Assembly: GCA_039621445.1 (NCBI GenBank)
Contig: CP154954.1
Location: forward strand, 43,937,847 to 44,001,846
Direction: 5' to 3'
Length of the DNA stretch: 64,000 nucleotides
Source of the DNA: Euglena gracilis
Lineage: Eukaryota
Positions 54,227-63,462 of the stretch are shown piece after piece. Within the stretch, counting starts at the first letter, position 1, and the number at the start of each line of letters is the position of its first letter. The position numbers were made by a program, and so were the translations under genes. The notes below the pieces were generated by a model. That model searched no databases. It was not told where the DNA came from and worked only from the letters and a program-made list of their open reading frames with translations.

Positions 54227-57200
54227 TCAGCCGACCTTCTTCTCCAGCGCCCGCATCTGCTCCTGCATCTTCGCCACCACTTCGTCGCAGTAGGTGCGGA
54301 CTGCCTGCAGCTCCCCCTTCAGGGACGTGTTCTCTTGCTCCAGGCTGAAGACCTTCGCCTCCTGAGCAGAGCCGCCCCGAACGTTCTGCCACCCCCCCCC
54401 CCCCCCCCGCCCGACCAACCGGGGTGTGGAAGGAGACGGCAATGCCGCGGAACGGCCCATCATGAAGACTCTGAGAGGGGTAACTGGGGCACCCTCGGCA
54501 ACCGCCCAGCGGGGGTAGGGTTGGCCCTGGGCGGCCTCGTCCATGCGCTGCCCGAAGAGGTAGAACAGCTCGTGGCCGGCGCGGATCTTCTCGATGGCGT
54601 CCTGTCGGTCGCCCCAGCCGGTGATGCGGGAGAACGAGGCCGTGTCCTCCAGGTCCTGTTGAGACGCAGGGGGAGGGTTAACGTGGGATTTGGCGGGGCT
54701 GCGGTTGGCTGCGGCCGTGTTCACGGGCGGCGTTGCAGCATTCCACGTTTCCACCTCCCATGGCAACACCCCCTCAGATTGCCAGATCGGGCAGGCCGGG
54801 CGAGGTTGAAGGAATCCAAAGCGGGGGATGGATATGGTTCACCTGCCAACCCCAGAACAGTCCTGGACGATGCTACCCGACTCGTAGTATCTGCTGTTTC
54901 CCGCTCTTTTCACCGCTTTTGTGGGGAATGAAGAGGTGCTCGTGCACTTGTCCGCAACACCCCCTTGTCCAACGATCACCAACGTTCGTCTCCGGCCAGG
55001 GTTGGGGTTATGCGACGGGGGGGGGGACCCAGGTCAGGAGAAATTGTACAAAGATCTGGCCATTTTATGCTGTGCTTTCGGCCCTTTGGGTTAATTTCGT
55101 CACTTTGGCCTCTTTGGGCCACTTTTGGCCGCTGTTACCTATCCCCCCGGGGGGGGGGGCGCTTGGCCCAAGCCATTATTGAAGGTAAAGCCAGGGGCCA
55201 ACCTTATAGGGGCAACAGGTTTGCACTAAGAATTTTGGCAGCCATGTGCAGAAGGCAGAAGGCCAAGTTTGCATGTAAGGAGAGGGGGCCAAGTGCCACT
55301 CTTTTTAAGCTACTGTTGGCCATTATAAAATATTTCGGCAATTTTTTTAGCCAGCTTTTGGAAACTCTTGGCCAATTGTCGCAATCTAGCGCAATGTCAA
55401 GCCACCCTTAGAAATTTCCTTCCATTTTTCAGCCATATTGAGTCCTAGCATTTTGCATTTTCAGACATTTTAATCATTTTTTTGGCCATTTTTGTCCAGC
55501 TTTTTTGCAAAAAAAAGCAAATTAATACACAATTATTCCCTTATCTTTGGAACCAGCATGGTTTTCAAAAACGTCACATCTGACCAGGGGCCGGTCGTTG
55601 GACAAGCTTGGTTGGACGGGGGGGGGGGGGCATGTAATGCTTTCAAACTTTCAAGCATCCCTTCGAAATCCTGGCCTGGGTATGTTGTCTCTAAATCATA
55701 CCAACCCCCCCAAGGAAACTGCCTCAGACAAGTCAGCGAGTACAGAGGTAGGAGACAGGTCCCTCCCTATAAGGGCAGGGCAGCAGGTGCGGAGGCAGGA
55801 GACACTTTTCTGTACGGGTCCCAGTCAGAGAAAAAAATGACAATTGACATTAGAGACGGAGCCTCTTACAACTTACCTGCAACTGGAAGATGCTGATGAG
55901 CATCCTTGTGCATCACTTGGAGACAGTGGAGCACGCTCATGCATGAAATACCCCCTTCTTTTCTCCTTCAGTCTACAATATATCAGGGGTTTCCACCCGA
56001 TATATTTTTTTCCAATTTTTTCGGCATTTTCCCAAACGCCTCCAATCAATCCCCCCAATCTTCGAGTATTTCGGGGGAAATTGCAAGGGGGAAAAACTGC
56101 AGAAAATCGCAGGAAATAGCGGACTGGAAAATTGGGTGCGGATGAAAATTCGGCATGGAAAGTTGCAAGAGAACTGTGGATATCAATTGCCCTCCCTCCG
56201 GAGAATGTTCAAGCTTGAGCACTCACACAACGCACACAACGCACACAGCACACACAACACACACACAACACACACAACACACAACACACAACACACACAC
56301 ACACACAACGCACACAACGCACACATCGCACACAACACACTTCGTGGCACACACCTTGTAGTGGAGGAAGAAGTTGTGGATCTCCTCCTTGACGTGGGCG
56401 GGCAGTGTGTCCAGGTCCTGGATCTCGTCCATGCGCGGCTCCTTTACTGCCACAGCGATGATCTTCGTGTCGGGGCCGCGCTCGTCGACCAGGGAGAGCA
56501 TGGCCACCGCCCGCACGGCCACCACGCACTGGAAGTGCAGCGGCTGCGGACCCCCCCCCCAATGGCTGCCAACAGGTCTGTGTCGCGTGCGTGCGTGCAT
56601 GCGTATTTCTGTGTGTGTGTGTGTGTGTGTGTGTGTGTGTGTGCGTGCGTGCGTGCGTGCGTGCGTGCGTGCGTGCGTGCGTGCGTGTGCGTGTGTGCGT
56701 GCGTGCGTGCGTGCGTGCGTGCGTGCGTGCGTGCGTGCGTGTGCGTGTGTGCGTGCGTGCGTGCGTGCGTGCGTGCGTGCGTGCGTGCGTGCGTGCGTGC
56801 GTGCGTGCGTGCGTGCGTGCGTGCGTGCGTGCGTGCGTGCGTGCGTGCGTGCGTGCGTGCGTGCGTGCGTGTGGTGCGTGTGTTGGTGTGCCAATGGGTG
56901 AGTGGAAGAGTGGGAGGGTGAGAGTTGGACATCAAGGGAGGTAACCCCCCAAATAACCTGGCATGGTGCCAGGTTACTGGAACCAACTTTTGGCCCTGCC
57001 CCCCCCCCCTTGCCAGGCTACTTGGGCCCTTTTTTCAGCGCCGTAAAGGATTATTGCCAAAAGTGGGGGGTGCCAAGTTACTGGAACCTCCCCCCTCAAG
57101 GTTATTCGGTCACTGCCAGGAGCAAGGGCTCCGCCAGGTTATTGGGGGGGGGGGGGTTAGGGTGTGATGCGAGGGAGGAGGGTTCCGAAACCCCTCTGCT

Positions 57201-63200: not shown

Positions 63201-63462
63201 GACAGAAAGGACTTTCCAGATGAGGCAAAGGGCCTGGGGTCGAGGCAGAAAGCCGCTGCGAGGGAGCTACCCAAACGACATGGCTTGCCCAGCCGTGGGC
63301 CGGGAACATGTCGTATCGGGGGGCCTGCCCGGCGCGGGTCACGCCGAACAGGTCGCGGGGCGCGTGGTGGAAGTCCACTGGCGGCTGTTCGCAACGCTTT
63401 TGGACGCCTTCCTCCCCCTCCGTGGCGGCCTCCGACTTCTTGTGTTCGAGGTCGCCGCGCTG
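54227..63462 (-). CDS. ppa: Soluble inorganic pyrophosphatase (family I) with two tandem domains and a C-terminal coiled coil. Exons ~63301-63462, 62930-63115, 61609-61745, 59607-59802, 58762-58879, 57997-58087, 56355-56547, 54227-54655 (a short intron may lie near 54380-54520). 5' end probably outside the window
   Basis: Domain 1: [96 protein letters not shown]. Domain 2: [61 protein letters not shown]. Confidence 0.9.
54656..56354 (-). other. Conventional GT-AG intron
   Basis: AAG|GTGTGT...TCAACAG|GAC, giving HYK-DLE. Confidence 0.85.
56640..56870 (+). repeat. (GT)n/(GCGT)n microsatellite in a PPase intron
   Basis: Directly visible. Confidence 0.95.
61746..62929 (-). other. Nonconventional intron
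   Basis: TCC|AGCCAGGGGGGTGAC...GTCCCCCCTGCCCCC|ACC, giving LVLS-TFSLAPG. Confidence 0.85.

Follow-up and report, generated by a model that had tools for sequence, protein, structure and literature searches.

Pairing at a fixed register in the nonconventional introns of a euglenid pyrophosphatase gene

In the 3' quarter of the 64-kb stretch of DNA presented above, which as a whole we call the window, the minus strand holds a gene for a soluble pyrophosphatase with three domains, and this gene raises the question of how the ends of introns departing from the GT-AG rule are marked out for splicing. Nine introns lie in the window's part of the gene, eight of them nonconventional and one of the GT-AG kind, and two further nonconventional introns interrupt a partial N-terminal copy. 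An earlier note on this DNA, made from its letters, had proposed that the two ends of such introns pair at a register that is conserved while the paired sequence varies. This proposal is borne out by all ten nonconventional introns, which pair from the fourth base of the intron (+4) and the sixth base from its end (-6), and do so with nine distinct triplet pairs at +4..+6/-8..-6 (both strands counted). The helix, the constancy of its register and the freedom with which the paired bases vary are direct observations of the present analysis, and we are highly confident that the locus is a triple-domain pyrophosphatase gene of the Euglena gracilis type, interrupted for the most part by euglenid nonconventional introns paired at a fixed register. 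The feature is real but already known, since all elements of the claim are in print.

Helix and register in ten introns

All junctions were set at the protein level, from a transcript-derived protein, EukProt EG_transcript_1590 (hereafter P0002), and pairing was not used in setting them. Every donor/acceptor pair that reproduces P0002 across a junction was enumerated for each of the ten introns, designated J1 to J7 and J9 in the gene and K1 and K2 in the partial copy, and helices were scored with G-U pairs allowed. In each of the ten, exactly one protein-compatible boundary gives a helix starting at +4:-6, which leaves spacers of 3 nucleotides (nt) at the 5' end and 5 nt at the 3' end; the helix then runs for between 4 and 11 pairs, and the other slides of the boundary give at most 2. 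The exons and introns are listed below, with the triplets at +4..+6/-8..-6 and the length of each helix.

63951-63998, minus strand: exon, P0002 residues 288-303 (RERALQDLRDSRQMYL), placed by tblastn and translation; the gene runs past the window end
63448-63950, minus strand: nonconventional intron J1, 503 nt, CGC/GCG, 6-pair helix; seven slides with identical mRNA and a 6-nt direct repeat
63301-63447, minus strand: exon, residues about 304-352
63116-63300, minus strand: nonconventional intron J2, 185 nt, CAC/GUG, helix CACGGC/GCCGUG of 6 pairs
62930-63115, minus strand: exon, residues 353-414, N-terminal part of pyrophosphatase domain 2
61746-62929, minus strand: nonconventional intron J3, 1184 nt, CAG/CUG, helix of 8 pairs; four slides with identical mRNA
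61609-61745, minus strand: exon, residues 415-460
59803-61608, minus strand: nonconventional intron J4, 1806 nt, CCC/GGG, 9 pairs (one G-U); the only intron of the ten whose canonical boundary has no slide giving the same mRNA
59607-59802, minus strand: exon, residues 461-525
58880-59606, minus strand: nonconventional intron J5, 727 nt, CGA/UCG, 6 pairs
58762-58879, minus strand: exon, residues 526-564, where pyrophosphatase domain 3 begins
58088-58761, minus strand: nonconventional intron J6, 674 nt, CGC/GUG (G-U at +5:-7), 10 pairs, then one mismatch and 4 further pairs
57991-58087, minus strand: exon, residues 565-596, ending ...LILSSFP, its last two bases opening the P codon
56542-57990, minus strand: nonconventional intron J7, 1449 nt, UGG/CCG, 11 pairs (three G-U)
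56355-56541, minus strand: exon, residues 597-659
54656-56354, minus strand: conventional intron J8, 1699 nt, GTGTGTG...CAACAG, with a helix run of 0 at the 3/5 register
54533-54655, minus strand: exon, residues 660-700
54362-54532, minus strand: nonconventional intron J9, 171 nt, CAG/CUG, 7 pairs, GC-AG ends
54227-54361, minus strand: last coding exon, residues 701-744 and the stop codon
38249-39222, minus strand: nonconventional intron K1 of the partial copy, 974 nt, UUG(G)/(C)CGA, 4 pairs, with a mismatch after these and then 5 more pairs in its minimum free energy (MFE) fold
37875-38119, minus strand: nonconventional intron K2 of the partial copy, 245 nt, GAG/CUC, 10 pairs

The triplet pair CAG/CTG is found in only two of the ten introns, 61746-62929 and 54362-54532. 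A purine opens the downstream exon in all ten and the intron itself in nine, and a pyrimidine closes the upstream exon in eight; these preferences agree with the published consensus (PMC3935182, PMC4770533). There is a C at +3 in nine introns and at -5 in eight, so placed that an unpaired C stands opposite another beside the first helix pair in seven, counts that come from a small sample of C-rich composition. The C at +3 belongs to the published CCAGG consensus (PMC11170887), and of the C at -5 there is no mention in the portions of the literature examined.

Conventional ends (GTGTGTG...CAG) are found in 54656-56354 alone. Among the protein-compatible boundaries of the nonconventional introns, nine of the ten offer no GT-AG or GC-AG option, the exception being J9, in which the GC-AG ends and the full nonconventional signature, exon purine included, share one boundary. 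J9 is a rare hybrid, or a member of the 'intermediate' class discussed in the literature.

The earlier note had gone on to argue that the splice sites are measured from the end of the helix. The fixed distance and the variable sequence on which this rested are both present in our data, but in two of the ten introns, 58088-58761 and 37875-38119, a +3:-5 pair can extend the helix outward, so that the statement is not literally true for every intron.

The pairing is well above chance and the statistics are strong. Pseudo-ends drawn from the same introns, with the number of slides matched, reach at least 3 pairs in 7-18% of trials and at least 6 pairs in 0.4-1.6%, depending on the intron. A covariation check, suggested by the earlier note for the whole genome and carried out here on the ten introns, sets the 4 to 11 pairs of the cognate ends against a mean of 1.46 for non-cognate 5' and 3' ends at the same register (90 combinations, seven of which reach at least 4 pairs). 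The total for the cognate ends was reached by none of 200,000 random reassignments of the ten introns and by 6 of 100,000 when the eight gene introns were taken by themselves. When a grid of registers was tried on these eight, only the register family to which the +4:-6 helix belongs accommodated all of them. The calculated energies of the terminal duplexes point the same way, with a mean of -25.4 kcal/mol for cognate ends vs -19.2 (standard deviation 6.1) for non-cognate ends, and these predicted values support the helix without being decisive.

The gene, its product and its partial copy

Translation of the exon 62930-63115 gives a pyrophosphatase segment whose best protein match, at 98% identity, is P0002, a protein of 744 amino acids (aa) with three PF00719 pyrophosphatase stretches (Pfam). 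When P0002 is compared with the window by tblastn its residues 288-744 are spread over ten exons of the minus strand between 63998 and 54230, and the spliced model is a 1374-nt frame with a lone terminal stop whose product is identical to these residues at 447 of 457 positions, free of gaps. P0002 does not derive from exactly this DNA, because ten residues differ, seven of them within a single exon; its source may be an allele, a paralogue or a different strain. A fragment, EG_transcript_61813 (P0122), which spans the J1 junction, is closer than P0002 to the window's version of this most divergent exon, for which no identical transcript-derived product is on record (P0002 86%, P0122 93% over 60%). 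The host is a euglenid, its top protein matches being EukProt EG_transcript_1590 and EG_transcript_61813, whose prefix 'EG' we take to stand for Euglena gracilis. A scan of the whole window with Rfam at the gathering threshold gave no matches.

The earlier note had described the gene as mostly nonconventional in its introns, and so it is, but two nonconventional introns had been missed, 63448-63950 (CGC/GCG) and 54362-54532 (CAG/CTG). Five of the introns that it did delimit are compatible with the protein at the coordinates proposed: 63116-63300 (CAC/GTG, 6 pairs), 61746-62929 (CAG/CTG, 8 pairs), 59803-61608 (CCC/GGG, 9 pairs), 58880-59606 (CGA/TCG, 6 pairs) and 58088-58761 (CGC/GTG, 10 pairs, a mismatch and 4 more). 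A sixth, proposed at 56548-57996 with CCC/GGG, where 7 pairs form in a run of G, lies 6 nt off, as it predicts SSQPLHF (...LILSSQPLHF) where P0002 has SSFPLHF (...LILSSFPLHF). At this position of the LILSSF stretch F or Y is present in the euglenid proteins P0003 and P0004 and FY in P0006, while P0005 is less clear. The boundaries of J7 that are compatible with the protein extend from 56540-57988 to 56544-57992, and within this set 56542-57990, with TGG/CCG and 11 pairs, keeps to the +4:-6 rule.

Several of the introns contain repeats. Inside J7 (56542-57990) a lengthy (GTGC)n/(GT)n microsatellite occupies 56580-56880, and a CA-rich (CACAA-like) repeat lies at 56220-56335 in the conventional intron J8, just downstream of the exon 56355-56541. 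By eye, a short telomere-like run of the CCCTAA type, of about 2.5 units, can be made out at ~62620-62640 in J3, and J4 holds, at 60500-60660 and 61200-61330, several copies of a tacgcggattaccgcc-like motif (~16-19 nt) together with ggtcgttggacataggg-like units. The motifs repeated inside J4 may be remnants of repeated elements.

The second copy, at 37827-39333 on the minus strand, consists of N-terminal exons only; it covers P0002 residues 7-102 at 88-95% identity, sits 15 kb downstream of the 3' end of the gene and has a stop in frame after ...KAKK. No further pyrophosphatase exons were found beyond it in positions 1-37826 by tblastn with E values up to 10, and the copy could represent a truncated duplicate or reflect a very long intron or a join made in the assembly. 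Elsewhere in the window a 285-aa open frame at 12532-13386 (minus strand) contains a YLDDILL-type motif, which we take to be reminiscent of reverse transcriptase; compared with Pfam, this frame gave no match at an E value of 0.001 or better. Another open frame, at 15528-16502 (minus strand), has a weak CEP19-like Pfam match of 25.2 bits, under the 27-bit cut-off, and perhaps represents an exon that belongs to a different gene.

Excision of the introns: published work and competing explanations

Register and complementarity were described in 2014 and 2016. Milanowski et al. (2014; PMC3935182) reported for 74 nonconventional introns that +4 and +5 pair with -7 and -6, mostly as CA/TG, with Y|R preferences at the junctions and frequent direct repeats, and in the same work (2013/14) they proposed that an endonuclease like that of tRNA splicing acts first and a ligase after it. 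In 2016 Milanowski et al. (PMC4770533) found the most conserved elements to be the pairing nucleotides +4,+5,+6/-8,-7,-6, in a passage that comes close to the very wording of the earlier note's title, and the phrase 'complementarity rather than sequence' is covered by both papers. For E. gracilis, a survey published in 2024 and covering 28,337 introns (PMC11170887) gives CCAGG at +3..+7 and CCTG at -9..-6, with terminal pairing in about 97% of the nonconventional introns, and for conventional introns a U1-complementary 5' motif, GTGTG. The CAG/CTG register, repeats resembling target-site duplications and excision as full-length circles are set out in a 2024 review (PMC11282704), which cites Guminska et al. 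(2021) for the circles; from the literature, too, it is known that these introns leave later than the conventional ones and form no lariat.

Mutagenesis of the kind that the earlier note had called for followed in 2025, when Nomura et al. (PMC12501133) knocked in natural, mutated and synthetic introns. Splicing is lost on single changes in CAG or CTG; it needs spacers of 3 nt on the 5' side and of 5 (or 6) nt on the 3' side, and a purine at the exon start and extended pairing are both required. Their code, 5'-N3CDG-/-CH'GN5-6|R, fits 61.2% of the nonconventional introns of E. agilis and leaves 38.8% outside; the authors infer sequence constraints beyond pairing and state that the trans-acting factors are unknown. 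In its Discussion that paper takes the same view as the earlier note, which had called the machinery uncharacterised.

The introns of the window share with those of the euglenid class the non-GT-AG ends, the pairing of +4,+5,+6 with -6,-7,-8, the 3-nt and 5-nt spacers, the exon-start purine, the slidable direct repeats and the presence of a GT-AG intron in the same gene. They differ in how seldom the commonest sequences occur, CAG/CTG being present in 2 of 10 where the survey of 2016 has it in 33 of 55 (PMC4770533) and CDG/CH'G in 2 of 10 as against 61.2% in E. agilis (PMC12501133), in a sample that is small, drawn from one gene family and not independent. The code-breaking introns vary at the first and third pairs, and for these pairs compensatory double mutants are absent from the main text of the 2025 paper as far as seen (PMC12501133). 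Slides with a 6-nt spacer yield only CCG/CGG, which the CDG/CH'G code excludes.

As to how such introns would be removed, the two ends of each would base-pair in the pre-mRNA, in a helix beginning at +4 on the 5' side and at -6 on the 3' side, with some 3 unpaired nt ahead of the 5' cut, some 5 ahead of the 3' cut and a purine opening the next exon. In the working model that we find most likely, which is the published one and with which the interpretation of the earlier note agrees, the helix would bring both splice sites side by side, and an activity, probably non-spliceosomal, would cut at fixed distances from it, join the exons and release a circle. That excision relies on the geometry of the helix and not on GT-AG or U1 signals, and that the intron leaves as a circle, comes from published work; that a non-spliceosomal activity does the cutting and joining is what we infer, and an endonuclease/ligase machinery is a hypothesis drawn by analogy.

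Two known systems bear on this analogy. A bulge-helix-bulge is made of two 3-nt bulges around a 4-bp helix, and in Ire1 splicing cleavage takes place in the loops of two stem-loops; the introns here differ from both, having a terminal helix with 3-nt and 5-nt tails that run into the exons. They do not form the bulge-helix-bulge motif, because there is no exon-side helix, at least 3 exon-exon pairs being found in at most one of the ten introns at any offset from 0 to 3 nt. The likeness to bulge-helix-bulge introns, which are removed by the tRNA-splicing endonuclease and an RNA ligase from archaeal and eukaryotic tRNA and from archaeal mRNA and rRNA, lies in cuts that are set by structure and in possible circles, and the likeness to Ire1 splicing of HAC1, XBP1 and bZIP60 mRNA lies in the use of a non-spliceosomal endonuclease and a ligase. 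Both analogies are made in PMC3935182, where it is also reported that an Ire1 orthologue was not found among E. gracilis expressed sequence tags.

A number of results weigh against our reading and have to be set beside it. Nine of the ten introns can slide, with 2 to 7 adjacent boundaries that lead to identical mRNA, and a split of 2 nt and 6 nt suits all eight gene introns as well as one of 3 and 5. The 3/5 split is one choice among equivalents, because these nine boundaries slide without a change in the mRNA; the sequence fixes no more than the helix and a total of 8 nt for the two spacers, and the split itself is borrowed from published introns that cannot slide. Folding, which the earlier note had put forward as a check, gave a divided answer: the helix appears in the whole-intron MFE folds of four of the ten (J2, J4, J6 and K1) and is absent from the other six, in what is a weak test, because the introns are long, G+C-rich RNAs. 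By duplex energy the cognate 3' end is the best of the ten in only three introns, and it seldom ranks first because all of the ends are G+C-rich. The junctions at exactly this locus are known from the protein level only, and P0002, on which they are based, differs at 10 of 457 residues from what the window encodes. Finally, the CDG/CH'G code is followed by two of the ten introns only, and the other eight stand outside the set that has been spliced experimentally.

The alternative that survives best, which we consider unlikely, sees in the terminal helix chiefly a relic of transposon origin, of the MITE kind (miniature inverted-repeat transposable element), with terminal inverted repeats and target-site duplications, so that the register would record the geometry of insertion and not serve as a ruler for splicing. 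Short direct repeats of 1-6 nt do flank nine of the ten introns, and a transposon origin has already been proposed (PMC12501133, PMC11282704 and the 'fingerprint' discussion in PMC4770533). With their inverted ends, and with direct repeats where they adjoin the exons, the introns also recall the introner/MITE introns of other lineages, which are, however, spliced by the spliceosome (PMC11282704), whereas nine of the ten introns here have no GT-AG option. Taken alone, an origin of this kind leaves unexplained the common register and the exon purine across ten unrelated helix sequences, and published experiments with point changes, altered spacers and synthetic introns show that pairing and spacers are needed for excision (PMC12501133); the loss of splicing on disruption of the stem argues against a relic as the sole explanation. 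Origin and function can both hold.

That a spliceosome, perhaps in a modified form, tolerates the non-canonical ends and removes the introns, with a helix that merely brings the ends together, appears improbable to us. Spliceosomal removal of non-canonical introns is reported for some other eukaryotes, J9 (54362-54532) is GC-AG at its signature boundary, and the 2024 survey says that independence from the spliceosome still needs experimental verification (PMC11170887). Against this, the nine introns other than J9 have no GT/GC-AG boundary that the protein would allow, the 5' ends (RSC, then the helix) are unlike the GTGTG motif of J8, and the literature has full-length circles and not lariats (cited in PMC11282704). 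Least probable is a sequence-specific signal (CAG...CTG or CDG...CH'G), with the eight introns that carry other triplets mis-bounded, poorly spliced or in a silent or decaying copy: the knock-in assay spliced only some complementary variants at the middle position (PMC12501133), the closest protein known from a transcript differs from the one encoded here and the junctions at this locus rest on the protein level, but the frame is intact over all nine introns and gap-free against P0002, the boundaries set by the protein still yield a unique slide with a helix of 4 to 11 pairs in each intron, and pairs other than CAG/CTG were known before, in 22 of 55 introns (PMC4770533) and in the 38.8% outside the code (PMC12501133).

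Meaning for euglenid introns

Returning to introns paired at a fixed register, what has been seen here is a correct rediscovery, from raw sequence, of the rule for euglenid nonconventional introns, and the rule matters because the enzymes that remove such introns are still unknown. The locus adds little to it: eight of its ten nonconventional introns break the CDG/CH'G code yet hold the register. A further suggestion, which we offer tentatively and without favouring it, is that for nonconventional splicing in E. gracilis a triplet of any Watson-Crick or wobble pairs may suffice at +4..+6/-8..-6, a U-G first pair and the reversed GAG/CUC included, with CDG/CH'G as the commonest subset and with a machinery that reads the position of the helix; this machinery might also read the C opposite C at +3/-5. 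If true, this would account for the 38.8% of nonconventional introns that lie outside the 2025 code. The code-breaking introns are a pointer to test substrates and not a discovery, because they form a small sample from one gene family, belong to a species other than that of the code and fit the conclusion of 2016; they are convenient natural test cases for extending the CDG/CH'G code.

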